This document shows positions 6,101-58,140 of a stretch of DNA of 64,000 nt, piece after piece. The stretch is from a virus. Both the position numbers and the translations under genes were made by a program. Each line of letters starts with the position of its first letter. Positions within the stretch are counted from its first letter, which is position 1. A model generated the notes under the pieces. That model ran no database searches, was not told the origin of the DNA, and saw only the letters and a program-made list of their open reading frames with translations. The stretch lies in the IMG/VR virus record IMGVR_UViG_3300044535_000472, positions 32,001 through 96,000 of that record; one strand, 5' to 3'.

Positions 6101-9100
6101 CATCTTTAGTTAGACCATTATAAGATTGCTTTTCAAATAATTCAGCAGCACGATCTTGTTCATCTTGTGATGGCATTTGTCCTATACCAACATTAGCAAG
6201 TGCAAAGCGTTCTACATAATCAAGTAAGAAATCATTTTCTTCTTCGGTAAGATTATTTATTTTACCTGAGTTTTCTTTAGTGTAAGCAATAACTTCTTGA
6301 AGGCTTTTGATAAGCTCCATACCTTCTTCTGTTATTTCACTAGCTGCTACTACACCACTTTCATCTCTATTAATAGAAGCAATATCATTTATAATAGCAT
6401 ATAAGTCACCAACTGATTCTATTTGATCAATTATATCTTGACTTACATTTCTTTTTGCTAATTCATCCTTAATAACTTTAGCAGTTGCCTCTGCTATTTT
6501 AGGATCTTTTTTAGCTTCTAATTGTTTAATACTTTCATAAAGAGCAGCTTGGATCTCATAGTATTCTTTCTTTGGAACCTTTCTTGTATTTTTTGCAAGC
6601 CACGCTTCACGCTCATTTAAAAATTCTTCAGAAGTTCTATCTCCACCTATGCTTGGTCTCAACAATAATTGTTGCTCGTAGTCTGCTAGTGCTTTTAAAA
6701 ATACTCCAGGACGAGGCTTAGACTCATAAAAACTAGAACTTAAATCTCTATATTCACGTAATCTTTCGGCAATAAGTTTATCCTCACCTTCTTTAAGATT
6801 TCCAAATTCATCTACTAAGCTATATAAAAATCTTTTTTCTCTTAATGCTAGCTTACGTACTTCGGTTTCATCTTTAATTTCAAAACCTTGACGCTTCATG
6901 TCTTTCCACATTTGAAGCTTTTCATTAACAATATCAAGTCTTCTTTTAGCTTCGGCGCCTATATCATCTCTTTCAAATAACTCTTGTCTTTCATAGTACT
7001 CTGGTTTATACTTATTGTTAAAGTATAAACGTCGCATCTTATTATACTCTTGTCTAATGTTGTTATATTCTTTTTTATCATCATCATTTAAAGTACTATA
7101 GTATTTTAAACGAGCTTTTTCAAGTCTAAAAGTTTCTTGGGCATCCCACCATTCATACCCTACAAATTCATCTAAGAACTTTAATACTTTAAATTCATAA
7201 AGATTACCATCTGGATGTTTTTCAGCTATGCTATCTTCCATTAAGAAGGTATCTGCTTTACTAATTAAGTTTCTAGCATTAATACCAGCTTTTTTAAGTG
7301 CTGGTATAACTTGCGATGAAAACATAACTTTATGCATATGGATTTTTGATTCCATTTCCATATAGTTAGTTCTTAAATATTTAGCAAATGCTCCTATAAC
7401 AGGATCTTGATTGACTAAGTAACTTTCAAATAATGAATTCATTTGACTTGCAAAACCATTGTTTACAATATCACCCATTACCATTTTTTCAAAAGTCTCT
7501 TTAGTAAGCTTTATACTATTGTAAGCAGCCTCTTCTACAGCTAGTAATCTTCTAGTAGCTAATGGAGAGTTCTCTAAAAATGCTTTACGCTTTAACCAGC
7601 GCTCATCTATTTTTTTAGCTGTTGGTTCAACAAATTCCCAAAGTGTATCTGTTAAGTTTTCTCCATAGATGTATAGTGCAGATCTTTTACCCCTTTCGGA
7701 TGCATTTCTAATATCTGATACAAGACTATAAAGTTCGGATTTTTCCGTAATACCAAGATCTTCTAAATCTTTAATAACCTTTGTTGCTAAGTCAATATAT
7801 GAATCTAAATAGTCAGTAAGATTTTTAACACGATAAATACTATCTGGAGTTACACCAAGTTTTTTTATTTCCTCAATTCTATTAGTTATCTTATCAGCAA
7901 TCATGTACGTTTGCTGCAAGCTGTTAACAAAAGCAATAGCAAGTTTTCTATTCTCTTCTACCAAATCTTTAATATGCCTAACTCTATTAGACTCATAACT
8001 ACTAAGAGTAGATGTTATATATGCTAAATCTCTACTATCGTCATTTGTTAGTAGGAGAGCAAGTTCTTGGTACTCATCTTTAGTGGTAGCTCGGAGCTGA
8101 TCACTAAATAATTTATACATGGCATCTATATTCTTTTTAAGCTGCGCATGTGTTTTTTTGGCAGTCTCATCATCAACTGCATTATCCAATTCTTTGATGA
8201 AATCGTTAATCTCCTTAGCATACTGTACTCTATTATCTTCAATAGACTCTTTAGTAGCTATAGACGTATCTATATTAAACTTCTCAGATAGCATTTCATT
8301 TGCTAAATCCATAAAAGAAGTATTAACTCCTAGGTCACTAAGCTTAGGTCCAGCACCAAATAGTTTTCTAAAGAACTTTTTAATTTGATAAAGTATATTA
8401 GAAACCATTTCGCTAAATGAATTTGGCATTGGTGTATTAGAAAGCTGAGCCTGTCCAGCCATAGTTAATACATGCACAATAATCTCTTCTGAAAAGCCTT
8501 GTGGATCTCCTTCAAGTTCAGGATACTGTTTTAAAAAGTTTTCTTGTAGTCCTAGTTTACCTAACTCAGACCAAGCTTTTTTAGCTAATTTTTGAAACAG
8601 CTCTGGGTTTTCTTTTGCCAAGTACTTTACAAAAGGGTGAGCAAACTCGTGAAATAAAGTCTTTGTGCTTAATGCACCATCTACTACATATACTTTTCCA
8701 TTATAAACAAATGCAGGTTCATTATTATAAGGAGCCTTTGTATTTTTAGTAAGCTCAATAGCATCATTTACAGATATAAATTCTACTTCAGGTTCACCAA
8801 ATACATTTGTCATGTTCATGCTAGCAGCTAAGTTTTTTACAACTTGCATGGCTTGAACATGTTCGGCTTGCTCCTGTGTTAAAGTATCTGTTAATAAATC
8901 ATCTATTGCAGCATCCTCTTCACTACGAGTAAGACCTAGTAAATCATCAATAGCTTCAATCTCCCTAATAAACCACGCCCTATCTATACCACTTTCTTGT
9001 GAATTAGGTGAGTTAGGTTGTATCGGTAGCGGGGTTTTAAATACTTTTATGTAATACTTTTGAGGCCCGTTTCTTAAATCATTCTCCTCTTTTACAACAT

Positions 9101-11426
9101 CTAAGTAACGCAAATTACCATTAAGCCTATTGTAAGCATTAACTTCATTTACTGCATTAGTATATCCACCTTGTGATAAGTATTTCTTATTATATATATT
9201 TGTATCACCGTTCAGCTTCATAAGATGTTTCTTAAACTGAGCAGGTGTTAAATCATATATGTTTTTGTTATACTGTGGAGTCTCACTTGTAATGTCTGTA
9301 ACAGCATCATTGCTAAATGCAACTAGGTATTGACTATCCGAAAACATTGTATAGTCAAGTCCCTTATAGCCTCTATCTTTAAGAAAGTTAAAGAAGTTAT
9401 TTTGAATAGCTAATCCTTCTGGAGAATTATCAAGTATATTAAAATCAGTTCCAGTTTGTTTTGCAAACTCAGACCTAAGAGGTCTATATTCTTTACTATC
9501 TCCTTCTAAAAAACCTTTTGTATCTACATTTACTTGTCTTACGTTTTTACCGTAGTTCTTTGCCTCTGCTTTATCAACAGTAAAATAATTAATTTCTCTA
9601 TTATCTAGAGTATCGTATCCTTGATATACAGCTTTAATGTCATCATTTGTTTCTTCAGTTTCTTGTATGATATCATCTATAAAAGAAAAGTATCTAAAAC
9701 CAGGAGCATTAAATTTATAAATGTCTTTCTTAAATGGGGCAAAGTAAATTAAGTCCATGATATCTTTACCACGGCCCATATTTATTTTTGCTTCAAAGAT
9801 TTGTTTCCAATCTTTCCAGTAGTTATCAAATATCTCTGGATAGTTACCTTGTGCAGTTCTTAAAAAGAAATCTAGTACATATCTTTTAGGTCTTGTTTCA
9901 CCGGTTTCCTCATCAATTTCAAATGCTGTAGGATGTTCAATGTACCCAGTAATTGTAACACTTTCACCTTTTTTATGGTCACGTCCTATGAATGCAGTTT
10001 GGAATGTCCATGAAGGAAATACTTCTTTTAGATTTTTATACCAAGATTGACCTTCTAAAAATGGTATGATCTCTTTATTAAATTTATTACGACCTAAAGC
10101 TGAGCCAACACTTGATTTACGTTGCATGTAACTCAGACCTTTAGTTTGAATCCAATCTAAAAACTCCTGAGCATTTGCCTCTTTCATGAAATGTTCAAGT
10201 GTAATAACACCATCAATATCATGCAGGTCTTCACTAAAGCTTCTGTATGTAGCTCCATATCTTCTCAATACTTGAGAGCCAGATAGTTTATAAGCTTTAC
10301 CCTCAGGGTCTAATGAGTTAAATAGTTTTTGCAACACATCTGCTGCAAAAGGATCTGCAGATAATGTAGTGTAATAGTTTTTTTGCTCTAGTAGATTACC
10401 TTTTTTATCATAGAGCATCCCATCGCGGACCTCTATACCACGCATCCACTTTTTGAAATCCTTCTCATAGATATCATCTACTAAGTCAAAAAGTAAATCA
10501 TTAAGCTTTTCAGCATTGTACTTAGTAAAAGGTTTACCATGTATTGCTTTATGTACAAAGTTATATATGGCAGCTAAAGCTGTTTTAAGAACTGTTACTG
10601 CATATGGGCTTTTGAAACCTTTTTTCTCAAAGAAAGATTTATCAATATCTGGATTTTCAAAGTCTATCTTTTCACGTTGATCAGGTCTATAAGCAAGTAA
10701 GCCATCTGTAATAAACTCAATAATAACTTGTTTGTGAGCCCAAGCGTTTTTTGGCGCATCCTTGCTTTCTGAAAACTCATCAACAGTTTCTTCAATAACA
10801 TCTAAGTCAGCATTTTGTATACTTTTTGTTTTACTTAGTGCATCGTACTTATCGTATAACTCATCATACTTATTCCAAAGTTTAATGTTAAACCATAAGT
10901 CTTTTGAAATCTTAGATTTTCTACCTAAGAAAGAATATGCAATGTTAGCAGTTTGCTTAGCTAGTCCTCTATCGGAAAGATTTTTTGGTATTGCTAGGAG
11001 TTTTTGAAGCATATCAAATGCAGCAACGGGAGGACCTAATTCTCCTTTATCCCATCTTCCGGCAGAGTTCATTTGTTCTGCTAGGCCTGTCCACTCTTGA
11101 CTACCTTCTTCAATGATATCAATACGTAATGCTCTTATAAAGTCATATAGTGAATCTCTAAATTGCTTTTGTTGACCCTCAAATTTTTGGTAAGACTTAA
11201 GATTACCTTTAAAGTTTCTTACTTTAAACTTTTTAAGATCATAGCGTTTAGCTTCATAAAAATCTCTACGCTCTGGATAAGCTTCTTGTAAAGTATCTAA
11301 AATAGCAAAAGGGTCTATTAAAGAACCTTTATCTTCTGTAAGTAGTAAATAATTACTTACGTCGTAGTCCCCTAACAATCTTCTTGCTGCTTCTAATGAA
11401 GGATTAAAAACTTGACAACTAGCCAT
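3198..11426 (-). CDS. giant virion-ejected polyvalent protein (2742 aa): nucleotidyltransferase-like, ART-like and zincin (HEFAH) domains plus a helical C-terminal region
   Basis: Motifs LSGSQVL...HDID / RGKDIMDL; VYQG..NYFTVDKAEAKNYG..GYKGLDY..YLVAF; TLFHEFAHPF..SEEIIVH. Adjacent to the RNAP gene, as in crAss-like phages. Confidence 0.75.
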   Translation of the reverse strand: MASCQVFNPSLEAARRLLGDYDVSNYLLLTEDKGSLIDPFAILDTLQEAYPERRDFYEAKRYDLKKFKVRNFKGNLKSYQKFEGQQKQFRDSLYDFIRALRIDIIEEGSQEWTGLAEQMNSAGRWDKGELGPPVAAFDMLQKLLAIPKNLSDRGLAKQTANIAYSFLGRKSKISKDLWFNIKLWNKYDELYDKYDALSKTKSIQNADLDVIEETVDEFSESKDAPKNAWAHKQVIIEFITDGLLAYRPDQREKIDFENPDIDKSFFEKKGFKSPYAVTVLKTALAAIYNFVHKAIHGKPFTKYNAEKLNDLLFDLVDDIYEKDFKKWMRGIEVRDGMLYDKKGNLLEQKNYYTTLSADPFAADVLQKLFNSLDPEGKAYKLSGSQVLRRYGATYRSFSEDLHDIDGVITLEHFMKEANAQEFLDWIQTKGLSYMQRKSSVGSALGRNKFNKEIIPFLEGQSWYKNLKEVFPSWTFQTAFIGRDHKKGESVTITGYIEHPTAFEIDEETGETRPKRYVLDFFLRTAQGNYPEIFDNYWKDWKQIFEAKINMGRGKDIMDLIYFAPFKKDIYKFNAPGFRYFSFIDDIIQETEETNDDIKAVYQGYDTLDNREINYFTVDKAEAKNYGKNVRQVNVDTKGFLEGDSKEYRPLRSEFAKQTGTDFNILDNSPEGLAIQNNFFNFLKDRGYKGLDYTMFSDSQYLVAFSNDAVTDITSETPQYNKNIYDLTPAQFKKHLMKLNGDTNIYNKKYLSQGGYTNAVNEVNAYNRLNGNLRYLDVVKEENDLRNGPQKYYIKVFKTPLPIQPNSPNSQESGIDRAWFIREIEAIDDLLGLTRSEEDAAIDDLLTDTLTQEQAEHVQAMQVVKNLAASMNMTNVFGEPEVEFISVNDAIELTKNTKAPYNNEPAFVYNGKVYVVDGALSTKTLFHEFAHPFVKYLAKENPELFQKLAKKAWSELGKLGLQENFLKQYPELEGDPQGFSEEIIVHVLTMAGQAQLSNTPMPNSFSEMVSNILYQIKKFFRKLFGAGPKLSDLGVNTSFMDLANEMLSEKFNIDTSIATKESIEDNRVQYAKEINDFIKELDNAVDDETAKKTHAQLKKNIDAMYKLFSDQLRATTKDEYQELALLLTNDDSRDLAYITSTLSSYESNRVRHIKDLVEENRKLAIAFVNSLQQTYMIADKITNRIEEIKKLGVTPDSIYRVKNLTDYLDSYIDLATKVIKDLEDLGITEKSELYSLVSDIRNASERGKRSALYIYGENLTDTLWEFVEPTAKKIDERWLKRKAFLENSPLATRRLLAVEEAAYNSIKLTKETFEKMVMGDIVNNGFASQMNSLFESYLVNQDPVIGAFAKYLRTNYMEMESKIHMHKVMFSSQVIPALKKAGINARNLISKADTFLMEDSIAEKHPDGNLYEFKVLKFLDEFVGYEWWDAQETFRLEKARLKYYSTLNDDDKKEYNNIRQEYNKMRRLYFNNKYKPEYYERQELFERDDIGAEAKRRLDIVNEKLQMWKDMKRQGFEIKDETEVRKLALREKRFLYSLVDEFGNLKEGEDKLIAERLREYRDLSSSFYESKPRPGVFLKALADYEQQLLLRPSIGGDRTSEEFLNEREAWLAKNTRKVPKKEYYEIQAALYESIKQLEAKKDPKIAEATAKVIKDELAKRNVSQDIIDQIESVGDLYAIINDIASINRDESGVVAASEITEEGMELIKSLQEVIAYTKENSGKINNLTEEENDFLLDYVERFALANVGIGQMPSQDEQDRAAELFEKQSYNGLTKDENKALATAYKTLRSISDKEPTAYYLDIYNNYISLIDKQFMIDDIGVNHIDETNADSYFLLDDVVDEIKSQNAQFAIWFDKNHIRVKKYDGKGGWSDAWQRVQVWSYNVPSDNRLFESTEIPNATHETDEKGNIIKETLFAAPNLEYYTFDVKPEFLTEEILPNTYDADGNVIPPNKDNKGNWLPKRLTQGAPDGRFINSRYAELRRTDKAMFDALEKYKEFYVGIQEGKDRSTKMYLELPRYTTDIAEDIGDALRNTKKSVFGKSNLKKPKVFSRWYDDVVRFFKPQAGSFEEGDTNFEESYEVEALSFFAKQNSKIPIEGRSNIEFNNVSRNFVKSTMRYMASLEKHQKLVELSPMAKAMREFYYEKDSKTGERIYVKNKLDSAGEIVTSEQQKRKGRVDKTIGWFKDTPRYASLDYLVAREFEGQKYGKGAGAVGLNNFFGGLFKIASFGYFSLDPSSALVNYYDALMELKIEGWAFKYTNPVSLQAGKLFGVHAMSTVTAEIYKTGPKSLVGQLIEIFDPGQDYQKRALDDGLSRNLAGDVVRLNFLTNTRKWFEMLATMQTMGALMHYKKVPRTIGTKTKYINYLDAWEIGPDKVIKLKDGIDPKYGINGSEFLKMKSRMQTVTSNINGAFGEFDQPRAAQWALYRIVSFIQKHLTRMLINHYGIKGNLFKGEGSGRYDWGNDDIHMGFFSAVTNYITKSVRTYGSGLVSPSREEGVYIMKTVRWITMLMAIGYMKSVWLGYNPDDDEEEALEEQARKKRKEDLKAKLRLATTGDERAMISYLKKRKEQREKEEKGIVELPTPDTWKKLYRRSGPLPILGAEVEADLYGGNEKETARFNSQEWLKLQALYITTRVGHDQEDWLAMSGYGLGNLMSIFNLKTGAALNPTLNRSVELINYIAADINDDRAGIYQQDSGPYPWEKAGDPKWYATLAGFFGLSGQFINPAGRQKQMETERKKLTVRD

Positions 11427-11429
11427 CTT

Positions 11430-14400
11430 TTAACATTTATTGAGTTCTTGTACTTTATTTAAGATATCTTCACGAGTTACTCGTATAAATTTTTTAGGTG
11501 CTACAACTTCATAGTTCTTATTCTTGTACCCAAATTCTTCGTAAAGCCTCTTAGACAAATATACGAAAGTTTTAGGGGCTTTTGCCCTCTTTTGGTTTAC
11601 ATTTTCACCATTAACATCAGCACCGATCATGTATTGCCCATAACCAGCAGCATTCCAAAAGATTTTATTATCATAGTCTTTAGCTGCTTTCTTAAGAGCT
11701 TGAATACTGTTTTCAATAGCTTTGATGTTTTCATCATAATTGTTATCAGTCATTTGCTGACTCACAACATCTTGATAGCCAAGCTTACTAGTTAAACCAA
11801 ATGAGTTTGTATTTTCTTGAGAAAGTGCAAATACTGAATCATTTGTCTCTAAAGGCTTAGCTGTTGGATTAGATGCGCCATTATATACAAACAGGTAGTT
11901 TGATCTATCACTAAGTAATTTGTTTATGGCTTGTTTAATATCTACATCTTTTTCTGCTTTACCTACTATGAAACTTGGACTTTGGTAGTTATCTCTAAAT
12001 GTTTGTACTGCACCAAATGATCCAGTAAGATCTGCAGCAGGGTTTCTAGAAGCTTTCCATAAAGGTTGATCTAGCGTATAGTTTCTAACCTTGTATCTAC
12101 TAGACGTATTCTTATATGAGTTAACAGTACTAAACTTGTTAAAGTAGCTATTAATTAAATTCCAAGTCATTAACTTATTGGTTTCCATATAGTTAATCAT
12201 GCTTTCTAAGATTGGAGTTAATCTTGTATCAGGCATAATCTGCCCTATACCATACTCACCTTTTGAGTTAAATCCTGTAGTAAACATTGTATATATAGGT
12301 AGGTTAGTGAAGAACTTTGAAATCTCCTGGGCCTCGCTTGAGGTCATGTTAGCAGTTTCAATTAAGTTAAATGGATCTGTTAGCTCAACTAAATCCTCAT
12401 GGAACCTGTTTATTCTATCTGCATCTAGCTTACCTGACTTAAATTTAATAACACGCTCTTTAGTCTTTGCTTCATCAGCTGTTAAAAAGTCCAATACTTT
12501 ATACTTCTGTACAAGGTCTGGGTACTTTTCTTTGATATCAAGAAGTCTTTTTGCGTATGATTTAGTAGGGCTCTTTAAAATATAGTATTGGTTAAATGTA
12601 TTATCCAACGCCATATCTCTCAAAGTGTTTTCATAAGCAAATGTTGTTGCTTTATTTTCCAACTCGCTTTCTTCAATCTCCTCAAACTTAGCTGCTATAA
12701 AGTCTTTTTTATACTGAATGTAATCACTTCTCTTAATGATATCAGATACTGGTATAGCATTTCTTAAATATTCACGCTCCATTACATATCTACCATATTC
12801 ACGTATGTTTTGAAACATGCCAGATCTAATGATACCAAATTCAAATGGAAGTTCTGGATTAGTGATGTTAATATTTTCCTTACCGCTATTAGCTTGTAAG
12901 CTTTCAAACTCTTCTACCAATTTTTGTTTGTCAAAGTACATCATTGGTATAGTAGTCTTGTCTTTTAACTTAACGTTTTTAACAAATACCGATACAGGAG
13001 ACTTAGTTGTTGGCTTAAGTTTTACTGATTTAGACGCAACTTGCAAACTCTTATAGTACTTAATAGAGTCAAGATCCAAATTACGCATGTAGTTTTGGAA
13101 CATAAACATTACTAAGTCATTTCTAAAGTTAGAAATAAATGCGTCTTGCTCACCAAATGTATCTGAGACTGCACTTTTAAACTTCTTATCGCTTAGTTTT
13201 TTAAGTAAGAAGTCATTTACTAATTTAGAATCTCTAATGGTAAATAGGTTCTTATATATATCTGACATGAATTCAGCTATACCAAAACTTGATATAGATG
13301 ATTCATCTAAGATTTTACTAATAACATCTTCACCAAATCTATCATCTTCACGTAGTTGATCAGCCTGATGTTGTCTTAAGTTAGTTTCAAATAAACTTGA
13401 TGCAACCTGCGTATCTAAATTAGTAGTACGCTTTACTGCAGTAATTACTTTAGACATATCTTCTATATCTAGGAAGTGTAATAACAATGCTAGTTGGTCA
13501 GTGTTTTCAAAATCAAGCTCATCTTGCAAGTGATCTTCAAAGTATTGTTGATTAAATACCTTATCCTTCAATGATCCAGCAATATCTGAAGCTGCATTCT
13601 TAATTGATTTTGAATAAAGTACAGTTTCACCATCATCATTTGTATCAGTATAAGCTAGCATTTCTGGGAAGTTCATAAGAACTTTTCTACGTGCTTCACT
13701 TCTAAAGAAGTTAGGGTTTGATAATTCAATACCTAGAGGACCTGCATAAGCAGACTTAGCTTTCTTAACCTCGTTAATGTATTGACGAATAATAGGTTGT
13801 GATACAAAGTAAGCAGCTTGTCTAATAGGTACACCAGCTTGAACCATTAATAGTAATGCTGGAGCTACAAAGTTGTTACCTTGAATATCAAAGATCCACG
13901 GATCTTTAGCAATATCTACCCAACCATTGATAAGCTGAGAAATAACATCTGATACCTTGTTTACACCATCTGCATCATATAAGTTACTCAATGATATGGC
14001 AGCACCATCTGGAGTTAATAAAGTATTGTGAGGCAAATAAATAGTTTGCTCTTTTTTAATTGGGTCGCCTTTTTCATCTTCTCCAATTATATATTTAGGT
14101 TGAAGATACGCGCCAACGGTATTAAAGATTACGCTATAGGTATTGTCTACGGCACCTTGACCTAGAGTTCTCTTACCGATACTATTAGAACCATGCTTAT
14201 AGATGTTATATTCTATTTCAAATATTCTTGTACCCTTAATTTCTTTACCTCTTTCAGTAAATACATTTTGTAAAGAGTCATATGGTCTTACCTTAGAAGC
14301 AAGCTCTTGGGCAATTGGTAATACAATATCAGTTGCGTTAGGTGTAATAAGATCTACATAGTTACTCTCTAAAGAAAGTATATCCATAATGTCTGTGATA

Positions 14401-17400
14401 ACATCATTTTGGAAATCCTCTGCTATAGATACTGAGCCATCTTCATTTTTGGTAAGCTTATACATTAAAGTAGTAAGCTTATCAATGTCAAAGTCACCTC
14501 CTGACTTAGCTACAATCTCGGCAGGAAGTACAATTTGGTTACTACCTTCTGGTAAGAACTCATATACTTCCATAAACTCCATAGAGTTAAGACCTTGCAC
14601 AGGAATACGCACACCAGCTAAAGAAACAAGCTTGCGATTATTATCTTCATTTAACCAGCTTTCATCTTTAAGAAGTTGGTTAAGAGCTTGAAGACGAGTA
14701 AGTGACTGCCCTTTTCTTGCAGCATCCTCAATCATCTCAGTAACCTTTGGTAAGTCTAAAAGCTTTTTATATTCTCCTTGAATACCAATCTTAATTTTCA
14801 TGGCCATTGTCTTACCATCTTTTTTTCTATAGAATGGTAAGTCATTAGTACCTAATACTTCTAGACGCTCCTTAGAGTCTTTGTTAGCATTAAAGAAATC
14901 ACGGTTAGTATAACCAGCACCTGATACTTGAACAAGAGCCTCTCCCGTAACCTTTTGCTTAATAAGTTTCTTATTAATAATAGATACAAGAACCTTTTCA
15001 ATTTCAGCCGCTGCTAGAGATACGTCTAGAGAAGATTTTAATTTACCTTCTTTATTAAGCTTAACAAAATCTAAATGGTGTTCAGCAAGTTCTCGCTTAG
15101 TTAATTGACTTTCTATATAAGCAAATAACTTATCTAAAGGTCCTGTTGGTTTACCATTTTCATATGTCCAACCTATTTCATCTAATAACTCTTGTTTCTT
15201 TTGAGCCATAAGATTTTCAAGGTTACCTTGAAAACGTTTAATTAAACTATAGTTTTTAGATTCTCTACGCTTAGCTCTATCATCTCCAATTTTACTCCAG
15301 TTAGCAATCCTAACTTCTTTAGGCATATCTGGTTCAAAGTCTGTAGGTACACCATTCTCCATTAGTCCAGACTCAATAAGTTTACGTAATTGAGTAGGGA
15401 ATGTAGTTTTATTCTTATACTTAGGTGCAATCTCTAACTGCTTCTTGAAGTACTTTAAGAATATATCGTTAGGAGTAAACATGTATCCGTCTTCTGTAAA
15501 TGCCAACTCACGGTTAGTAGCATCTTCCGAATTTTTATAAAACTTATCTGGTTTACCATTAGGTGTAATAGTAGCAATCTTAGATCCTGATCCGAATAAA
15601 GCATAGTCGACCTTTTGCTCAACCATCTTATTATGAAGCTTTTCAAGATCGGAGCCTTCAATAGTAGATGGAATTAATGGTACCAATGAGAATTTATGGA
15701 ATGCTGTAAGTGGTAAACCATTTGTTGCAAGTGGTCCCCAGTATTGCATCTTAAGTACAGGGAAGAATTCTTTAATCTTAGTTTGATCAATATTCTTCTT
15801 AGCCAATACATCTCTATATAATAACTCTTGTGTATCTGACCATGCACCCATCATAATGCTAAGTGCCTTATAACCATCAAAAGTTATCCAGCCTTGAGCA
15901 TCCCCTTCTTTCATTTCACGGTATGGCTTAGCACGTTCTTTAACAATTTTTTCAACGTCCTCGTCTGTTAACTTACCATTTTTATAGCCAGGTGAATTTT
16001 TGATAGAAGTTCTAATGTCATCTTCAATGGCAGCGTAGTATAATGATTTTGTTTCAACATCTTCTAATACTGCACTTCTAAATTGTTCACCATAAGACTT
16101 CTCTACACTTTGACCTGTATACCAGCTACTTGAACGATAGCTAGCTTTATCAGGGGCAAATACAACATTATTTAAATAGCGTAACATTGCAGGGTCGGTT
16201 CTTGGAATAATACCACCGCTATTAATACCGGCGTTACGTTTTTGGAACTCCTCCTTAGCCATGTTATATAAAGCTGGATCACCATGATAAAGCAATACAG
16301 TTTCTACATTATGTATAAAGCTATTATAAACATGCGTTTTAATAGCAATATTTCTAGTTTGATTTCTAGTTAATTTTTTAGCTTTAGTATCATTACCAGC
16401 ATAGAGTTCTTGAATTTTATTGTGCATGGTATCATCCATGTATTCAGCTTCTACTAGCTTTTCAGTAAATTCATTTATCTTATTTGCAAAGTATACTTTT
16501 ATAACATCATCTGCTATTCTCTTTTTAAGATCGCTTGACTCTGGTAAATCTAAATAATCACGTAATCTACCACCATATTCAGCTGGGATACTCTTTAACT
16601 CTTCCTGTAACTCAGGTCTTATCATGTCTGAGAATATCACAAACTTTTCACCCTCTACACCATAAGTAGATTTACCTACTGGTATCATACGCTCTGGAGC
16701 ATTTGCAGGTAAAGCTTTTACCCTATTGATACGATCAAGCTCGGCCTCTAAATATCCCAGTAAGATATTAAATGCTGCAGCTTCACCATTAGTACCAAGA
16801 GCAAATTCTCTAGGGTTTACATAATACTTTCTATTAGATAAGTGATATACAAGTATTGTAGATTTATCTGCAGGAGTAGTTCCCATAGGTAAACCGTGGA
16901 TAACGCTTACGTGAAAGTCTGTAAGACGCTTTGTAAATTCATCTGAGTCTGATGCTGCAATACCATTACTTGGTTCACCATTAACTGTAAATGAAACACC
17001 AGCTAAGTTATTGATATCAATGGTAATCTTTTCATTAGATCCAACCTCTTCTTTAATACCACGCTTAGGCCCATTGGCCTTAGACATGTCAAACAACTCA
17101 TGAATTGTTACAAGACGTTTTCTTCTAGGATCTGGGTCATTACTTACAAAAGGATTGCGTAGTGCAGATAAGTGACTCATCTCAGGTTTTGCAATAAGAG
17201 TATTAAAATCAGGTGCCTCCTGTAATTCTCTAATCATTTGAGTAATGGTATTGTTTTCCATAAACTCATACTGCGCATCACCTGCTGCATTTAATACCAT
17301 GAAGTCTGAATAATCATCGGTATATGTAGCTTGAATCTTTTGCAAAGAGTTGTAGAATCCGCGTAAACCTTTTAGAACATCACCATCTTGTCTAACCTTT

Positions 17401-20400
17401 TTAGTAGGATTAATTAAATCATCAATTTTTCTTACTACAATTATACTCTTTGGCTTATTCTCAGCAATCATTTTATCATTATGAAGCTTAATAGCTTCAA
17501 TACGATCAAACATTACTTTAGCTGGATTTGGAATCATTTTATTTAATGCCGCAATAATCTTAGACTTATTGTCAAAGTATATTCCTACATCTTGTAAAAA
17601 TTTAAGTCTGTTAAGACTATTATACTGTGATGCATAGTCATTATATATAGCATCAATGTCTAGGAAGTTATTGCCATTAATATCAGGTTTGATATACTTA
17701 GTTGTAGTTGTTTTAAACCTGTCATTCCAGTCACGCCCTACCTTAGCATCTGCCGTTGAAGCACCCCCTACTTTAGCACTATACTCAAACTCGGTTTTAA
17801 TAATATTACCCTCTGCATCTCTTTCAAGAACATTAGTTGTTCTATCAATAACTAAAGCAACAAGTGGAACACGAGTTTTATTAAATGCATCATTAAATTG
17901 TGTCCATAAGTTTTGGGCATTAGCCGTCATTTGCGTATCAGGATTGCCAAGTTTAATTAGCAATTCTTGTATAAATGGATAGTCTTCTTTTGAATCCTGT
18001 AAACGACTATACATTTCTTGTGGACTATTAGCACCTTGTAGTATTCTAGTAATACGGTTCCAAGCAATACCAAAATCCATTAGTGTATTAAAGCCTAAGT
18101 TGTTTAGAGCTTTATCACCATTAGACTCTAAAGCATGTAAACTTTTAATTAAATAGATAACACTTTCATTAGCAAGATCTAATAATGAAGCTTCATTACC
18201 TCTTCTGTCATGACCATCTCTACTTTTGAATTCACCAGTGTCTTCAAATAATAGTACTGCTTTTTCCGATGCTGTAACAAAATCTGAGAAGCGAGATTTC
18301 TTATTGTAATACGCAATAATACCTTTATCACTTTCAGTATCCCAGTTATCTGTTGCCCATACTAAAGCATCTTGTTGATTTAAAAGTCTTTGCTTTTCAC
18401 TATCTGTTGTAGCATTTGCTATTTGAATATCTAGTGCTTCAATAGCTTCTTCTATTTTAGTCTTAGCATATTGTAATGCTGCTTCTCTACCTTTTGGTAT
18501 GGCTAGGAGAGCCGTTGTGTAATATGCTTTATCGCCGGAACCATCTTCGGTTACACCAATTCTTAGGTTAACAAAGTCAGATACTAATGAGTCTAAGGTA
18601 TCTACTATTTCCATAGAGTTACGCATAGTAAGCAATGGTGTGCTATAGTCTTCATTTATAGCCTCAGCACCCTTATTCATTACTTGCTGTCTAATCTCTG
18701 CAGGTAAGTTTTGCTCAGAGTAGCTATACTCAGTTAATCTTCCAAACTGTAGCTTATTATAAATATCATTAGCATAAGTCAACGCTTCTTGGTTTAAAAC
18801 CATGTCGTTGTAACTCTGTACTCCAAATAACTCAAGGAAGAAATCAAGAATTTTCCTAAAGATACTACGCTGTGTAACATCTTTAATTTCCATTTTACCA
18901 CCAGACAACATATAAGCTCTAAACTCTTCAGCTAGGAACTCTTCAAGTTCAAGGTCACTTGCTTTAGCAAAGTCTCTATATACACCTTTGTAAGTTCTGA
19001 AGTTACCGCTACGCTTTCTAGTTTTTTCATAAAGCTCTTGTCTTTGAGCATCAGTCATAAACATGCGGGTAAACCCGTGCCATGCTTCGTGGTATAAGTC
19101 TGAGTAATTAGCACCTTCAAAAAGTATAATAGCATTTTGATACCACTTTGCAACTGATGTTGGGTCATAAGTATTAACCTCATTCATTAAGTTTTCAAGT
19201 GGAAACTTATCTTTAAATATGCTATTATCAAACCACTTCTTAGCTTCTTCAAGCTTAGCTTTTAATTCATTTGGGCTAAGTTGTGCAATGTCAAAACGTA
19301 AACCAAATTGTCTAACAAAATCTCTAGCTTGTTTTTTATTTCTAGAAAGCCCTTGGAATTCGTCATCCTCAAGGCTATCATTCTTAACAATCTCATTTAT
19401 AACTTCCCAAGCTGATGGCTTAGGTGCTTCCTCAACTTTTTCTGCTGGAGCTTTTTTACCTTTTTCTTTAGCAGCTGGTTTAGTAGTAGCAGACTTCTTA
19501 CCCTTATTTGTTTTAGTAGGTGCAGCCGCTTTTTTTCTTTCGTAGTTTAAGATCTTTTCAAAGTTTTCATCACTAGGATCAAACTTAATATGACCGTTAA
19601 GCCCTACTATTTGATTGTCTTTATTAAGTGGTATATTAATAAAGAAGTTATCTTTAATGTAATCTACATAGTTAACTTCATTCTTTGTCTTAATCCACTC
19701 GCCGTCCTTTTCGTTAATGTTAAAGTTATCAAATAGACCATTAATATCACCAAGTACATCTGACTTAATGTGAAGACGTCTTTTATATACTTTAAAATAG
19801 CCAGTACCCTTATCTCTTTTTCTTGCTATAGGATCTTCAACTATAGTATTTTCATCTAGCTTATCTTCATAAGCTTTATCAATTTGTTTATTTATAACAG
19901 TTTTACCATCTAGAAATCCTGATTTTAATTCTTTTTCAGTAACCTCAGTTCCTGATACATAAAACTTTTCAAAAAGGTGTTTGTATATAGCATCTTCTGC
20001 CTCAGCTTCTTTTTGTGCGTCAATGCTTTTTCCAGACAATTTTAATACCCGACCAAGACCTTTAACATAGTTGAACTCAATACCTGATTCAGGTAAGTAT
20101 ATATATTCAGATAGGTATTTGTTTTTTTCATCTACCGTAAGCTCTCGCTTTTCACCTAAGTCGTTTATTTCAAATACAGGTCTGGCAATTAATCGAGCAA
20201 GCTTTCTAGCTATATCACTAGACATTCCTCTACTAATAATAGGAATAGCACCAGTTACACCATTAATATAAAATACCTGGTTAGTTTTAGTTTGACCAGA
20301 TGCTCTATAATTTTTTTCAGGTACGATAACTGGCTTAAATACTTGATTGATAAAGTTGACTTTACTAATTGGAGTAAGTAAGTTATAGTCAACATACATT

Positions 20401-21398
20401 GCGCCTAAAGAAGTTCCAGAGATTGGGACTGTAACCCAGTTTTCTGGTTTATTAAAATTATCCTTCGTGTAAGCAAATAAGTTTGTCATAAACTTAATTT
20501 CTTCATTAAGGATTTCCTGAGCCTTTTCTACAGATATCCCCTTACGCTTAGCAATATCTTCTGGAGCAAGTACACGCTTTCCTATATTTTCTGAAGCTGC
20601 TCTACCTGATCTAGCCTCAAAGTAAATAGGCTTACCGTTATTCTTGTTTGTAACATTATAGTCATTGTCAAAGAAAAGAATGTTACCACTTGCATCTGTA
20701 ACAGCTAGCAAAAGATTGTCAGCTCTTGAATAAGCTGTGGTATCATAAATATCATTTTTCTTTACTAGAGTTTGCAATGCACCTCTTGGTATAGCCGTTA
20801 AGTGATATCCGTAATCTTTATCTTTTGCGTTGTTAGTTATGTGTAGGATGAAATCGTAGTAAAATGCTTTTGCAGGGTCAGCTACGCGATCTTCTAATTT
20901 AGTTGCAGCATTAACTAAGTTCTGAATACCAGTTGTAGAAAAAAGACTATCTACAATATAGTTAAATGATGTAGCAAGTTCTAATGCATTACCCGCTGGT
21001 AATTCACCACTAGTAGATCTTTCAATTGCAGCTTTAACTTCTACCTCTTCAACTTTTTCTGCAGTTTCACCAGTGCCTAAATATGCTTGAACTTTAGAAT
21101 AGTCTTCAAACTCTAGCATTTTATCCGTAACAAAGTTTACATTAAACCCTGTTTTGATTAAGTGCATAGTAACATTGTTGTTAATAAAGGCAGCCTGACT
21201 AATAATACTTGGTAGTATTTGGGTATATGCCTCAGTAACTAATTGGTCATCTGCATTTTTAGAAATAAGACCCACAATATCTTTCATGTAGGTCTCTGGA
21301 TTTATCGGAGTATTATTTGAAAACGCTTCATAAAAATCACGATATACCATTTGGTAAAGCGAGTCTCTTTCTTTTTGACTTATACTACAGATTGCCAT
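11430..21398 (-). CDS. virion DNA-dependent RNA polymerase of crAss-like type (3322 aa) with an N-terminal zincin-like domain
   Basis: RIPVQGLNSM...IVAKSGGDFDIDKL: the DFDID catalytic motif (14481-14495) is the hallmark of the single-chain double-psi-barrel RNAP of crAss-like phages. EGDAQGWIT and KMQYWG segments are also present, as is LYHEAWH..EEFLAEEF (zincin). Confidence 0.9.
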   Translation of the reverse strand: MAICSISQKERDSLYQMVYRDFYEAFSNNTPINPETYMKDIVGLISKNADDQLVTEAYTQILPSIISQAAFINNNVTMHLIKTGFNVNFVTDKMLEFEDYSKVQAYLGTGETAEKVEEVEVKAAIERSTSGELPAGNALELATSFNYIVDSLFSTTGIQNLVNAATKLEDRVADPAKAFYYDFILHITNNAKDKDYGYHLTAIPRGALQTLVKKNDIYDTTAYSRADNLLLAVTDASGNILFFDNDYNVTNKNNGKPIYFEARSGRAASENIGKRVLAPEDIAKRKGISVEKAQEILNEEIKFMTNLFAYTKDNFNKPENWVTVPISGTSLGAMYVDYNLLTPISKVNFINQVFKPVIVPEKNYRASGQTKTNQVFYINGVTGAIPIISRGMSSDIARKLARLIARPVFEINDLGEKRELTVDEKNKYLSEYIYLPESGIEFNYVKGLGRVLKLSGKSIDAQKEAEAEDAIYKHLFEKFYVSGTEVTEKELKSGFLDGKTVINKQIDKAYEDKLDENTIVEDPIARKRDKGTGYFKVYKRRLHIKSDVLGDINGLFDNFNINEKDGEWIKTKNEVNYVDYIKDNFFINIPLNKDNQIVGLNGHIKFDPSDENFEKILNYERKKAAAPTKTNKGKKSATTKPAAKEKGKKAPAEKVEEAPKPSAWEVINEIVKNDSLEDDEFQGLSRNKKQARDFVRQFGLRFDIAQLSPNELKAKLEEAKKWFDNSIFKDKFPLENLMNEVNTYDPTSVAKWYQNAIILFEGANYSDLYHEAWHGFTRMFMTDAQRQELYEKTRKRSGNFRTYKGVYRDFAKASDLELEEFLAEEFRAYMLSGGKMEIKDVTQRSIFRKILDFFLELFGVQSYNDMVLNQEALTYANDIYNKLQFGRLTEYSYSEQNLPAEIRQQVMNKGAEAINEDYSTPLLTMRNSMEIVDTLDSLVSDFVNLRIGVTEDGSGDKAYYTTALLAIPKGREAALQYAKTKIEEAIEALDIQIANATTDSEKQRLLNQQDALVWATDNWDTESDKGIIAYYNKKSRFSDFVTASEKAVLLFEDTGEFKSRDGHDRRGNEASLLDLANESVIYLIKSLHALESNGDKALNNLGFNTLMDFGIAWNRITRILQGANSPQEMYSRLQDSKEDYPFIQELLIKLGNPDTQMTANAQNLWTQFNDAFNKTRVPLVALVIDRTTNVLERDAEGNIIKTEFEYSAKVGGASTADAKVGRDWNDRFKTTTTKYIKPDINGNNFLDIDAIYNDYASQYNSLNRLKFLQDVGIYFDNKSKIIAALNKMIPNPAKVMFDRIEAIKLHNDKMIAENKPKSIIVVRKIDDLINPTKKVRQDGDVLKGLRGFYNSLQKIQATYTDDYSDFMVLNAAGDAQYEFMENNTITQMIRELQEAPDFNTLIAKPEMSHLSALRNPFVSNDPDPRRKRLVTIHELFDMSKANGPKRGIKEEVGSNEKITIDINNLAGVSFTVNGEPSNGIAASDSDEFTKRLTDFHVSVIHGLPMGTTPADKSTILVYHLSNRKYYVNPREFALGTNGEAAAFNILLGYLEAELDRINRVKALPANAPERMIPVGKSTYGVEGEKFVIFSDMIRPELQEELKSIPAEYGGRLRDYLDLPESSDLKKRIADDVIKVYFANKINEFTEKLVEAEYMDDTMHNKIQELYAGNDTKAKKLTRNQTRNIAIKTHVYNSFIHNVETVLLYHGDPALYNMAKEEFQKRNAGINSGGIIPRTDPAMLRYLNNVVFAPDKASYRSSSWYTGQSVEKSYGEQFRSAVLEDVETKSLYYAAIEDDIRTSIKNSPGYKNGKLTDEDVEKIVKERAKPYREMKEGDAQGWITFDGYKALSIMMGAWSDTQELLYRDVLAKKNIDQTKIKEFFPVLKMQYWGPLATNGLPLTAFHKFSLVPLIPSTIEGSDLEKLHNKMVEQKVDYALFGSGSKIATITPNGKPDKFYKNSEDATNRELAFTEDGYMFTPNDIFLKYFKKQLEIAPKYKNKTTFPTQLRKLIESGLMENGVPTDFEPDMPKEVRIANWSKIGDDRAKRRESKNYSLIKRFQGNLENLMAQKKQELLDEIGWTYENGKPTGPLDKLFAYIESQLTKRELAEHHLDFVKLNKEGKLKSSLDVSLAAAEIEKVLVSIINKKLIKQKVTGEALVQVSGAGYTNRDFFNANKDSKERLEVLGTNDLPFYRKKDGKTMAMKIKIGIQGEYKKLLDLPKVTEMIEDAARKGQSLTRLQALNQLLKDESWLNEDNNRKLVSLAGVRIPVQGLNSMEFMEVYEFLPEGSNQIVLPAEIVAKSGGDFDIDKLTTLMYKLTKNEDGSVSIAEDFQNDVITDIMDILSLESNYVDLITPNATDIVLPIAQELASKVRPYDSLQNVFTERGKEIKGTRIFEIEYNIYKHGSNSIGKRTLGQGAVDNTYSVIFNTVGAYLQPKYIIGEDEKGDPIKKEQTIYLPHNTLLTPDGAAISLSNLYDADGVNKVSDVISQLINGWVDIAKDPWIFDIQGNNFVAPALLLMVQAGVPIRQAAYFVSQPIIRQYINEVKKAKSAYAGPLGIELSNPNFFRSEARRKVLMNFPEMLAYTDTNDDGETVLYSKSIKNAASDIAGSLKDKVFNQQYFEDHLQDELDFENTDQLALLLHFLDIEDMSKVITAVKRTTNLDTQVASSLFETNLRQHQADQLREDDRFGEDVISKILDESSISSFGIAEFMSDIYKNLFTIRDSKLVNDFLLKKLSDKKFKSAVSDTFGEQDAFISNFRNDLVMFMFQNYMRNLDLDSIKYYKSLQVASKSVKLKPTTKSPVSVFVKNVKLKDKTTIPMMYFDKQKLVEEFESLQANSGKENINITNPELPFEFGIIRSGMFQNIREYGRYVMEREYLRNAIPVSDIIKRSDYIQYKKDFIAAKFEEIEESELENKATTFAYENTLRDMALDNTFNQYYILKSPTKSYAKRLLDIKEKYPDLVQKYKVLDFLTADEAKTKERVIKFKSGKLDADRINRFHEDLVELTDPFNLIETANMTSSEAQEISKFFTNLPIYTMFTTGFNSKGEYGIGQIMPDTRLTPILESMINYMETNKLMTWNLINSYFNKFSTVNSYKNTSSRYKVRNYTLDQPLWKASRNPAADLTGSFGAVQTFRDNYQSPSFIVGKAEKDVDIKQAINKLLSDRSNYLFVYNGASNPTAKPLETNDSVFALSQENTNSFGLTSKLGYQDVVSQQMTDNNYDENIKAIENSIQALKKAAKDYDNKIFWNAAGYGQYMIGADVNGENVNQKRAKAPKTFVYLSKRLYEEFGYKNKNYEVVAPKKFIRVTREDILNKVQELNKC

Positions 21399-24300
21399 TA
21401 TTCACAACGATTTTTAAGATTATTTAAAAAGTTATTTTGCGCTTGGGCCTTAGTCATCTTTTCAGCATCACTAGCAAGTTTAGCTTGAGCATCTTTATCA
21501 TTAGCTAAAGTTTCTGCATTTGACTTTGATTCATTCATAACTTCATCAGTTTCAGGTTTTGGAGCAGGAGCCTTTTTCTTTTTTGTAGATGAAACAACCA
21601 TCTTATCAATATCTTCTACAACTGATTCATCTAGGATTTCACCTATGGCATCCTCGTCATTCAAAGGTACAACAGTAACTTGTTTTTTACTAACTTTTTT
21701 AACCTTAACTACACGACCATCTTCAAGTTTAATGATCATTCCCACTTCAGGTTTTACTTTAGCTGTTTCTTCAGTTTCAAGAACTTCTGGTTCTTTAACA
21801 ATTTCTTCAATAGCAATACCGTATAGCTTAAGCTCATCAACTATCTTTTTAATTTTTTCATTTAAATCATTGATTTTAACTAAGTTACCTGAGCTTATAG
21901 CTGCAATTTGTTCACCTCTTAGTTTAGATAACTTAGTTTTTAAACCGTCAATTCTTTTTTGCTGTTTAGTTTTTTCAGCTTCAGCTAATGCATCTTCTTC
22001 CTCTTGAGTTCTAGTAACTTCAGAACCTGCTGGTCTACCATATCCAGTAACCTCAAAGATATCACGTGATGTGTTTAGCTTTAATAGTATACTAGGGTTT
22101 TCTGCAGTTCCTGTATTTAAACTAGTAAGACCTTTTACAACACCTCCAGCATTAGTAGAAAGTTGTATTGGTAGGATGTAAATATCGGTGATGTCTTCCC
22201 CAGTAGCTTGGCGAATTAATTCACGGTATGCTAACTGTTGAATTGTATGTCCACGCTCATATTGATATTCATCTGCAGGATCATTATAGCTATCAACTAA
22301 GTTTCTAGTAGACGTCTTTAAGTCAATAATACCTAAATCGCCATTTTCATTATACATAAGAAAGTCAATTTCCCCAGCACGTGGTCCAGCAATATCACCA
22401 AATAAAGTTGGGATACTACCTACTACTTTAAAGCCTTTATCTTTTAAGTATTGTTTAACTTCAACCATTGTGTTGTACAATGCACTTGGGAAAGTCGCAC
22501 TATACTGCATCATTTTCTCACCACTTTCTGAGTCAACTTTACCAGATAACTCTTCTAGTTTTTGTTTTACTTGCTCTGGTGTAGTTAATTTACCATCAAA
22601 GAAATCACGAAAAATAGGGTCAAGTACATTACCACGGTTAGCAGCAGTAGTATTAGTAAACTTCTTGGCTAAGATATCCCTAACGATATCACTAACACGA
22701 GCTACCTTATTGCCATCCTTTTCATATCCACCTTCTACTTTAGTAACTCCACTAGCTTTAAAGCTATCGCTAAGTTTCTTAATTAAAGCTTGTACCTTTT
22801 TATCAGCTTCAGCAAACTTAGCAGCAAACTGAAGATCAGCTATTGCTTGTTGTAGTGTTTGACCTTGAGCATGTAAAGCAACAACCTCATCTTCGGTTAA
22901 ACCATTAATATGTTCTGGTAACCAACCTCTTGCAAATAGATCATCTCTAATCTGCTGAATATCAAGTGGTTTAGGTTCTTCTGGTTTTTCTTCAACAGGA
23001 GCTTCAGTTTTACTTTTCTTCCAGTTTTCAATAATTGTAACAGCCTTTGGGTTAGTTTGAATAAAGTTTTTAAAGCCTATTTTGCTTTCTTTTATTTTAG
23101 CAACGGCAGCTACTTTTTTATAAGCATCATAAAGTAAATCGGAAAGATCTTTAGGAAGCTTTTCAACAGGGGTGTTAATATCAATATTATCTACATCTTC
23201 TGCTGTTGTACTAAATCCTTCTAATGGTGTAACCTCAGGAACTTCTTCAGTAGTAGCAGTAGAGGTTTTAGTAGATGCTGTTTTTACCAATACAGGTAAA
23301 CTAATCATTACCGAACCATTTGCTGCATTAAATCTTAATTCAGCTTCGGGTAGTAACTTAGTTACTTGTTCTTTAATTTTATTAAACTCTTCTCTAGTTA
23401 AACCTGTTTTTTGCTCATATAAATCACTTATTTCATCTTCTGTTTTTGCAGAACGTAATGCATCTAAAGTAGCAGCATTTAAACTAACATTGCTAGTAAT
23501 TATATTTCCAGATGCATCTCTTAATAACTCATATCCTCTTTTTAAGTTATTAGCATATACTCGTAAACCGTCAAGAGAAATGTTTGTTTTTTCAGTGTAC
23601 TCATGTTCTGCAGGTAAAGACTTTTGAACTTCTGCAAGCATAGTCTTAAAGTTATCTTTATTACCAGACTTGTTCTCCATTTTAGAAGTCCATCTATTAG
23701 TTGGAGTAGTAACAACTTTACCATCTTTTATAGACCTTTCATATATTCTTATATAACCAACATAATCATTATCAGATGTTCCTGTCATGATAACATCTAC
23801 TAATCCATTATCTGGGTTAGTATATTCAGCAAGACCAATTCCGTTAACTTCTCTATAGCCTGATATTTTTGAATTTTTACCACTACCTCCAACTACATCA
23901 GCAAACTCAGTTTCATCTGGGAATAAATCTTTTCTTTTTCTATTCTTAATTGCATCTTCTGGTGTTTCTGTTGCAGGTTTAGTACCCTTAGCTTTTGCTC
24001 CTAATGCATCTGCCTCAGCATTAGCTTCTTCAAATCCAATTACCTCACCATCTACTGTTACAGTTAATGGTTGAACACCAAGTTTTAAAGCTCTAGATGT
24101 TGCATATATTATTGCCTGTAAAAGCTTTACTCTTCTATCATTTTCTTCTGGAGTAAGTTTATCGCTTTTTTCTATTACAGGAGTTTCTTCAGCCGTAGTT
24201 GTTTCTTCTTCTTCAATAGCAACTTCTTCTAGTACTTCATCCTTTGGTTCTTCAACAGATTCCATAGCAGGAGACTTTCTACGCTCACCCGGTTTTTGTA

Positions 24301-32781: not shown

Positions 32782-32805
32782 AGTTTATACTGTAAATATA
32801 CGAAA

Positions 32806-32838
32806 AACTTTTAAAAGTTACTAAACTTAAAAAGTTTA
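32806..32838. repeat. two adjacent palindromes: AACTTTTAAAAGTT (32806-32819) and TAAACTT-AAA-AAGTTTA (32822-32838)
   Basis: Perfect dyad symmetry read directly in the intergenic gap upstream of the 1494-aa gene. Confidence 0.8.
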
Positions 32839-32844
32839 ACTTTC

Positions 32845-35439: not shown

Positions 35440-35450
35440 CCTATAGATAT

Positions 35451-38126: not shown

Positions 38127-38194
38127 ACCGCTAATATAGTCATTATAATATATAAGATACTGATTTCTTTAATAAATTCCTAGCTATCAAAGAT

Positions 38195-38212
38195 TTAACT
38201 TTTTAAGTTTAG
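38195..38212. repeat. second copy of the TAAACTT-N3-AAGTTTA element; 38197-38212 is the exact reverse complement of 32821-32836
   Basis: AACTTTTTAAGTTTAG (38197-38212) versus CTAAACTTAAAAAGTT (32821-32836); it overlaps the stop codon of the 652-aa gene. Confidence 0.75.
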
Positions 38213-40167: not shown

Positions 40168-40173
40168 TCTAAG

Positions 40174-54183: not shown

Positions 54184-54212
54184 TATATATAATTTACAAA
54201 AAAATTTACGTT

Positions 54213-55535: not shown

Positions 55536-55538
55536 ATT

Positions 55539-57338: not shown

Positions 57339-57341
57339 TAT

Positions 57342-57470
57342 TTATTTTTTTGCTTCTTGCTTTTTTGCTTCATAGGAATGTATGCACTTTGAACATACTT
57401 GTTTTCCATCTTTACTCACTCTTTTTTGGCAGCCGCAACTTAGGGCTGCTCCACAATTTGCACATTTCAT
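57342..57470 (-). CDS. 42-aa six-Cys metal-binding mini-protein (MKCANCGAALSCGCQKRVSKDGKQVCSKCIHSYEAKKQEAKK)
   Basis: Manually translated; CxxC-CxC-CxxC pattern; preceded by the A-rich leader AAAAACCAACATATT. Confidence 0.7.
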   Translation of the reverse strand: MKCANCGAALSCGCQKRVSKDGKQVCSKCIHSYEAKKQEAKK

Positions 57471-57491
57471 AATATGTTGGTTTTTAAATTA

Positions 57492-58049: not shown

Positions 58050-58064
58050 TGTATTACTAAGTTA

Positions 58065-58072
58065 CAAAGATA
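58065..58072 (-). promoter_or_regulatory. Bacteroidota sigma70-type -7 element TATCTTTG
   Basis: Exact TAnnTTTG match, 16-23 nt upstream of the ATG at 58049 and just after a terminator. No clear -33 TTTG seen. Confidence 0.45.
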
Positions 58073-58084
58073 TAGTGTAAAAAT

Positions 58085-58123: not shown

Positions 58124-58140
58124 ATAAGTTTTAGTTAAGA

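Follow-up and report, generated by a model that had tools for sequence, protein, structure and literature searches.

Paired cysteines at the facing ends of giant cargo proteins suggest a disulfide-linked chain in crAss-like phages

We analysed three giant neighbouring open reading frames (ORFs) in a 64,000-nucleotide stretch of viral DNA (hereafter the window), which covers positions 32,001 to 96,000 of the IMG/VR record IMGVR_UViG_3300044535_000472, a 122.6-kb virus genome estimated to be complete. The ORFs belong to a long series of minus-strand genes and encode, in gene order, proteins of 2298, 3322 and 2742 amino acids, the middle one being a predicted RNA polymerase (RNAP) of the crAss type. 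Together the three proteins contain only five cysteines in 8,362 residues (0.06%, direct count), and four of these are found at the termini that face each other across the two gene junctions. Judging from this arrangement and its behaviour in relatives, two intermolecular disulfides probably link the three proteins in the order 2298, RNAP, 2742: Cys2297 of the first protein would bond to Cys4 of the RNAP, and Cys3322 of the RNAP to Cys4 of the last protein.

Cysteine positions and identity of the three proteins

The original prediction, made from this DNA alone, had listed these cysteines; a direct count gave exactly the same positions and numbers, and the codon coordinates were correct:

21398..28294, minus strand: first protein of the proposed chain, 2298 amino acids; starts MANEQ, without an N-terminal cysteine; cysteines at 1135 and 2297
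24890..24892, minus strand: codon of the internal Cys1135 of the 2298-residue protein, the sole non-terminal cysteine of the three proteins
21404..21406, minus strand: codon (TGT) of Cys2297, penultimate residue of the 2298-residue protein (KNRCE-stop)
11430..21398, minus strand: predicted virion-type RNAP, middle link, 3322 amino acids; only Cys4 and Cys3322 (last residue)
21387..21389, minus strand: codon of RNAP Cys4 (MAIC), found in 16 closer homologs and lacking in fused forms
14481..14495, minus strand: DFDID catalytic motif of the two-barrel RNAP, residues 2302-2306 (15-homolog alignment)
11433..11435, minus strand: codon of RNAP Cys3322, an invariant column in two terminal/homolog alignments
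3198..11426, minus strand: last protein of the proposed chain, 2742 amino acids; Cys4 is its sole cysteine, with none at the C-terminus
11415..11417, minus strand: codon of Cys4 of the 2742-residue protein (MASC), the sole invariant column of the N-terminal alignment

Read directly from the DNA, the 2298/RNAP junction is ...CGT TGT GAA TAATG GCA ATC TGT... and the RNAP/2742 junction ...AAT AAA TGT TAA aag ATG GCT AGT TGT... The chance that at least four of five uniformly placed cysteines would fall in the 51 terminal positions, of the 8,362, is ~7e-9; the terminal position of the cysteines is thus real, and chance is excluded. The cysteine content of the other proteins of the window ranges from 0.9% (1781 + 303 amino acids) up to 5.4% (four cysteine-rich proteins).

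The fifth cysteine, Cys1135, is kept in 19 of 21 homologs of the 2298-residue protein, within the motif SxD[DE][LV]C[ND]F[IV][IV]NSKFAT, which has no family match. It could be catalytic or form another link, and it plays no part in the chain model.

The 3322-residue protein had been called an RNAP, and the label was borne out. In tblastn searches this protein matched exclusively crAss-like phages, at 22-27% identity, including phi14:2 g066, a 'catalytic RNA polymerase subunit' (E 8e-7, 26% over ~175 residues), a 'putative RNAP catalytic subunit' of Rudgehvirus (E 1e-9) and 22 other crAss records. At the sequence level, the similarity to characterised crass RNAPs is weak but consistent; g066 corresponds to the RNAP 'gp66' characterised by Drobysheva et al. 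Moreover, a G-x-DFDID block at residues 2300-2306 is invariant in an alignment of 15 homologs, and a DFDxD motif is described for crAss RNAPs in a preprint (bioRxiv 10.1101/2020.03.07.982082). Because of the invariant DFDID and the remote similarity to g066 and to the Rudgehvirus RNAP, we assign the protein, by sequence, as a crAss-type virion RNAP.

The two flanking proteins are the positional counterparts of phi14:2 g067 and crAss001 gp47 (2298-residue protein) and of phi14:2 g065 and crAss001 gp49 (2742-residue protein). The last protein carries a zincin-type HEFAH motif at residue 926, conserved as HEFxHP in the family alignment; this motif-level feature resembles the protease-like domain reported for phi14:2 gp65 in the phi14:2 RNAP preprint. 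The first protein contains a weak PD-(D/E)XK nuclease-like region (~1880-2055), beyond which PHROGs and Pfam searches returned nothing for any of the three proteins, and a PDB sequence search gave no match for any of the three. The block shares with the RNAP cargo blocks of phi14:2 (g067-g066-g065) and crAss001 (gp47-gp50-gp49) a remote RNAP homology, the DFDxD motif, a zincin HExxH in the last protein and the terminal cysteines, but its proteins exceed theirs in length by 30-90% and have diverged too far for PHROG, Pfam and PDB sequence matches. The window further encodes virion proteins and a major head protein of the crAss type. For both phi14:2 and crAss001, mass spectrometry has placed the counterparts of all three proteins in the virion, and these are considered to be ejected cargo (crAss001: PMC10172136). 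By analogy with these homologs, we infer that the three proteins are packaged and ejected in the present phage as well.

The 2742-residue protein also has a well-conserved N-proximal domain (residues ~70-620, window positions 9560-11220), with 41-52% identity vs ~25% elsewhere and many invariant residues, including H402-D403-I404-D405. This domain has no Pfam, PHROG or PDB match, and tblastn against 50,697 phage records was blank. In two relatives (L026 and P0106) it is found elsewhere in the chain, a case of domain shuffling.

Co-conservation of the terminal cysteines and their movement with gene boundaries

Relatives were searched with single terminal segments, which returned just relatives of ~90% identity; the alignment of the 2742-residue family was used instead. 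It retrieved 40 IMG/VR loci, whose genes were walked, and 32 non-redundant loci were counted. The terminal cysteines are highly conserved in all three families. Of 32 RNAP homologs (92% down to 23% identity, 3,300-5,700 residues, 0-3 cysteines each), 31 have a cysteine 0-6 residues from the C-terminus. In the 2742-residue family a cysteine is present at residue 2-9 in 72/74 homologs (residue 3 or 4 in 64/74), mostly as the sole cysteine in 2,100-2,900 residues, and in the 2298-residue family a cysteine lies 1-4 residues from the C-terminus in 20/21 homologs. When the last or first 200 residues from 16 diverse loci were aligned (mean identity ~20%), the cysteine was the sole invariant column on both sides of the junction. 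The C-terminal cysteine is followed by only 0-2 residues in 45/53 cases; with cysteines so near the chain ends, a linked joint would be almost linear.

The co-conservation of C-terminal and N-terminal cysteines in adjacent genes of crAss-like homologs, a central expectation of the original prediction, was recovered when junctions were scored in the 32 loci. Both cysteines were present at 42 junctions, the C-terminal one only at 1, the N-terminal one only at 4 and neither at 30, these last being unrelated gene pairs in the same loci (Fisher 6e-16, a descriptive value since related genomes are non-independent). In the chain proteins of the IMG/VR loci, 69 of 79 cysteines are terminal, in 158,911 residues; chain-like proteins contain 0.064% cysteine vs 1.36% in the remaining ORFs of these loci. 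An apparent exception in L020 resulted from a mis-called start, the real junction being ...KTCE-stop / MPCKIE.

The strongest line of evidence is that gene boundaries vary by lineage and that the cysteines move with them. The gene of the 2742 type is split after ~575-690 residues in four loci (L007, L008, L040 and L042) and after 1,167 residues in a fifth (L041). At each split, the new upstream end has gained a cysteine 0-2 residues from its terminus and the new downstream start a near-terminal cysteine of the MxxC type:

L007 fission: 583 amino acids, ..CKL / MSKC
L008 fission: ..C / MSDSTC
L040 fission: ..CFR / MYTC
L041 fission: 1167 amino acids, ..CK / MSSC
L042 fission: ..CL / MKVC

In two loci (L044 and L012) the chains have three to five links. 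Conversely, RNAP homologs without an N-terminal cysteine are extended at the N-terminus by 800-1,850 residues; in three homologs the extension is detectably homologous to the 2298-residue protein, which identifies these three as fusions. In L026, a single ORF of >6,182 residues, with its domains reordered, has one cysteine, at the true C-terminus. Finally, all chains have cysteine-free outer ends: none begins with a protein that has an N-terminal cysteine, and none finishes with a protein that has a C-terminal one.

Named crassviruses follow the same pattern. In phi14:2, the sole cysteine of g067 (1,797 residues) is its last residue, g066 (2,180 residues) contains only Cys3 and Cys2179, and g065 (1,421 residues) only Cys3. 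In crAss001, the sole cysteine of gp47 (2,341 residues) is two residues from the end, gp50 combines Cys5 with an internal cysteine and with one 8 residues from its end, and the sole cysteine of gp49 is Cys5. The gp47 gene is on the strand opposite to gp50 and gp49, ~11 kb from the gp50 start, which places the signal in the proteins and removes explanations at the DNA junction. In Rudgehvirus (Intestiviridae), a protein of 2,018 residues ending in ...CS is followed by one starting MAC... In two Suoliviridae, cr4_1 and cr118_1, a fusion of the first two proteins (4,491 and 4,946 residues) carries a cysteine 3 residues from the end, and the next protein starts MIC..., that cysteine being its only one. 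The Cys pair of the last junction is also kept in cr108_1. Since phi14:2, crAss001, Rudgehvirus and the Suoliviridae all obey it, the terminal-cysteine rule is, by sequence, order-wide in Crassvirales. All together, conservation, fissions and fusions, the polarity of the chain ends and the crAss001 arrangement lend strong comparative support to the head-to-tail pairing 2298, RNAP, 2742 that had been proposed.

Two of these genomes show peculiarities of their own. In cr108_1 (L049, 8978-20568) the RNAP-block gene is annotated in two pieces of 2,967 and 798 residues, ~290 nucleotides apart; the second piece has a non-ATG start and the break carries no Cys pair. This points to an interrupted gene (intron, insertion or error) more than to a true fission. 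In cr4_1 (L048), the annotated cargo genes contain 7-38 in-frame stops under table 11, in keeping with the reassignment of stop codons known from some crAss-like phages; the terminal-cysteine rule is still kept.

A proposed disulfide-linked cargo chain and its alternatives

Cysteine avoidance is common in ejected proteins. By direct count, gp50, gp51 and gp52 of phage N4 contain no cysteine in 4,294 residues (the virion RNAP gp50 none in 3,500), and T7 gp14-16 contain one in 2,261. The distinctive feature here is the retention of the terminal cysteines. The single T7 cysteine, at residue 2 of gp14 (MCW...), is terminal too, gp15 and gp16 having none.

A structural precedent is found in the unrelated cyanopodophage A4 (Anabaena phage A-4L). 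There, gp27 (1,717 residues) has Cys1715 (...DNPCQF) as its sole cysteine, and the sole cysteine of gp26 (1,114 residues), the next gene product, is Cys5 (MSKHC). A cryo-electron microscopy structure of the A4 pre-ejectosome contains a disulfide between these two residues, where gp26 accommodates the C-terminal helix of gp27 in a cleft, the whole forming a pentameric ring; its authors regarded the bond as a local stabiliser and proposed no general rule (PNAS 2025, PMC12002296). As at the junctions described above, the upstream cysteine is a few residues from the C-terminus, the downstream one near residue 3-5, and both proteins are large and cysteine-poor. The two cases differ in that A4 has one link vs two or more here, in that no RNAP is involved, and in that the A4 proteins are seen as a folded ring. 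Blastp of gp26 and gp27 against the window proteins gave no match better than E 0.6; the resemblance concerns the mechanism and not the ancestry. In the one case with resolved termini, the signature seen here thus corresponds to a disulfide. The crAss001 virion contains disulfides too, in its tail (PMC10172136).

A4 also bears on novelty. The original prediction knew of no description of such a mechanism; this claim of novelty does not stand in full, one inter-protein disulfide between consecutive ejection proteins being published (PMC12002296). New with respect to A4, as far as sequences tell, are the order-wide distribution, the multiple links, the inclusion of an RNA polymerase and the covariation with fissions and fusions. 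The accessible text of the phi14:2 RNAP preprint, the crAss001 atlas and the N4 ejection paper make no mention of these cysteines, and targeted literature searches found no statement on cysteines or disulfides of Crassvirales cargo.

We propose that, in the virion, the three RNAP-associated cargo proteins would form a single linear chain through covalent head-to-tail links, the disulfide taking the place of the peptide bond of a polyprotein. This would explain the loss of the pair in lineages with fused genes and its gain in lineages with split ones. Other cysteines would be selected against, such that no wrong or looping disulfide forms in proteins that leave the capsid via a narrow channel. 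The bond would form in this virion, keep stoichiometry and ejection order, and be undone by host thiol reductants in the cytoplasm; such a release by cytoplasmic reduction is plausible. Near-terminal cysteines, interchangeable in evolution with a peptide bond, fit a chain that behaves as one polypeptide. Continuity of this kind is known in other forms: the N4 virion RNAP gp50 is likewise a very long, cysteine-free ejected chain, and in the Suoliviridae fusions the first two crAss proteins are one polypeptide, with the Cys pair at the remaining junction only; according to the phi14:2 preprint, some phages fuse all three proteins. In these cases continuity is provided by peptide bonds, whereas here it would be provided by reversible disulfides.

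The C-terminal cysteines had been predicted to end amphipathic helices. The hydrophobic spacing h..hh..h..h in ...EDILNKVQELNKC and ...NNFLNNLKNRCE fits an amphipathic helix, and AlphaFold2 (AF2) modelled residues 187-198 of the last 200 residues of the RNAP as a helix that ends two residues before the cysteine, at a predicted local distance difference test score (pLDDT) of ~53; the first 8 residues of the 2742-residue protein were coil (pLDDT 38). These runs used 16-row alignments and were of low confidence (mean pLDDT 62 and 55). Thus, the spacing is visible, the helix itself is weakly supported, and amphipathic C-terminal helices are plausible. A complex prediction with the window's own segments, the RNAP C-terminus (150 residues) and the N-terminus of the 2742-residue protein (130 residues), scored 0.04.

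Several observations weigh against a disulfide-linked thread. The cytoplasm in which virions are assembled is reducing, and many hosts grow anaerobically. No thioredoxin or glutaredoxin was found in the whole 122.6-kb genome; a search for Erv1 gave no match in any control genome and was therefore uninformative. For no crassvirus is there a published non-reducing gel, disulfide-mapping mass spectrometry or density for the termini. The conserved Cys1135 of the 2298-residue family is unpredicted by a strict model that allows no stray thiol, and cysteine counts alone fit other pairings too, for example between the two ends of the RNAP itself. The rule is broken at two junctions: in L028 (1-1345) a shortened upstream ORF ends in ...EMYNK, without a cysteine, and is followed by MTC..., and in L012 (5314-9674) a 1,446-residue protein, with its nearest cysteine 17 residues from the end, is followed by MFC...; by analogy with crAss001, the partner protein may be encoded elsewhere in these loci. 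Finally, the linked A4 proteins form a folded ring and no thread, so that this precedent backs the bond but not the threading.

This last point leads to the most serious alternative, in which the disulfides do exist but act as staples of a folded, stoichiometric core of cargo in the capsid, as in the A4 pre-ejectosome, stabilising it against DNA pressure and fixing a 1:1:1 ratio. It differs from a threaded chain in function only, and we regard it as rather unlikely, although it is the strongest competitor. In its favour are the helix-in-cleft geometry of the A4 ring and the capsid cargo zone of crAss001 for the three RNAP-associated proteins (Bayfield et al. 2023, PMC10172136). On the other hand, cysteines very near the chain ends, in a pair interchangeable with a peptide bond, are what a linear chain calls for and more than a staple needs. 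Both roles together remain compatible with the data, and a linked chain could serve to order threading, to fix stoichiometry, to stabilise the cargo core, or more than one of these ends.

That the facing termini dock while their two cysteines share a metal ion or a non-covalent contact, without a disulfide, appears improbable. Shared metal sites were allowed for in the original prediction, the comparative pattern fits any pairwise contact of termini, and the reducing, often anaerobic setting of assembly would suit such a contact. However, each terminus offers one cysteine, without a conserved neighbouring His, Cys, Asp or Glu in the terminal 200 residues, two thiolates make a poor Zn or Fe site, and the same signature in A4 is a disulfide.

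It is less probable still that each terminal cysteine is modified or anchors its own protein to another part of the virion (portal, inner capsid or tail cargo protein). The crAss001 tail does contain disulfides between different structural proteins, from tail hub to ring proteins (PMC10172136). Separate anchors, however, account neither for the cysteine-free chain ends (N-terminal in the first protein, C-terminal in the last), nor for two anchors in the middle proteins, nor for fissions that add two cysteines and fusions that remove two; moreover, partners would be few, the other virion-module proteins of the window being almost cysteine-free.

Chance, or a nucleotide-level signal at tight gene junctions (translational coupling or start context), can be practically dismissed: the junctions are indeed tight (gaps of -4 to +24 nucleotides) with TGT near both stop and start, but the window alone gives the P value above, the cysteine offset from the ends varies, TGT and TGC are both used, other tight junctions in the same loci lack the pattern (30/30 'neither'), and crAss001 keeps it with gp47 on the other strand, on which ground the DNA-level reading was rejected. 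An intein or trans-splicing origin and a lipobox were also considered and set aside, as a signal peptide is missing and the cysteine is at the extreme C-terminus of the upstream protein, not at an intein boundary.

Neighbouring genes and significance of the proposed cargo chain

Upstream of the chain genes (28297-44445, minus strand) lie five virion-module ORFs of 1494, 864, 891, 652 and 1423 amino acids, with only three cysteines in 5,324 residues, none of them terminal. In the 1423-residue protein, which includes a lysozyme-like region (phrog_4290), the single cysteine is at 1068. These five proteins may be further ejected or tail-lumen proteins. In contrast to the cysteine-free cargo genes, four adjacent genes at 52672-59460 (minus strand) encode cysteine-rich proteins of 503, 440, 599 and 439 amino acids with 26, 31, 37 and 13 cysteines (5.4% overall), and the third of them contains a VWA domain (E 3.6e-10). 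Probably these four are rich in disulfides and belong to the outside of the virion or serve in adhesion.

Crassviruses are the most abundant phages of the human gut. Structural papers leave open how polymerase-associated proteins amounting to more than half a megadalton per chain are packed and then delivered through so narrow a tail. The sequence rule described here, cysteines at facing chain ends only, accounts for both the extreme cysteine avoidance and the free tolerance of fusions and fissions in the cargo block. It provides annotators with a marker for the order and the ends of the cargo chain, scattered genes included, and a concrete hypothesis that is testable in the cultured phages phi14:2 and crAss001. 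We suggest, as a tentative generalization, that Crassvirales and at least one unrelated podophage might, by convergence, stitch all their giant ejected proteins, the virion RNAP included, into one thread by near-terminal disulfides in place of peptide bonds; the thread would set order and stoichiometry, pass through the tail as a single string and be cut into working subunits by reduction in the cytoplasm. If true, this would constitute a redox-gated device for protein delivery.

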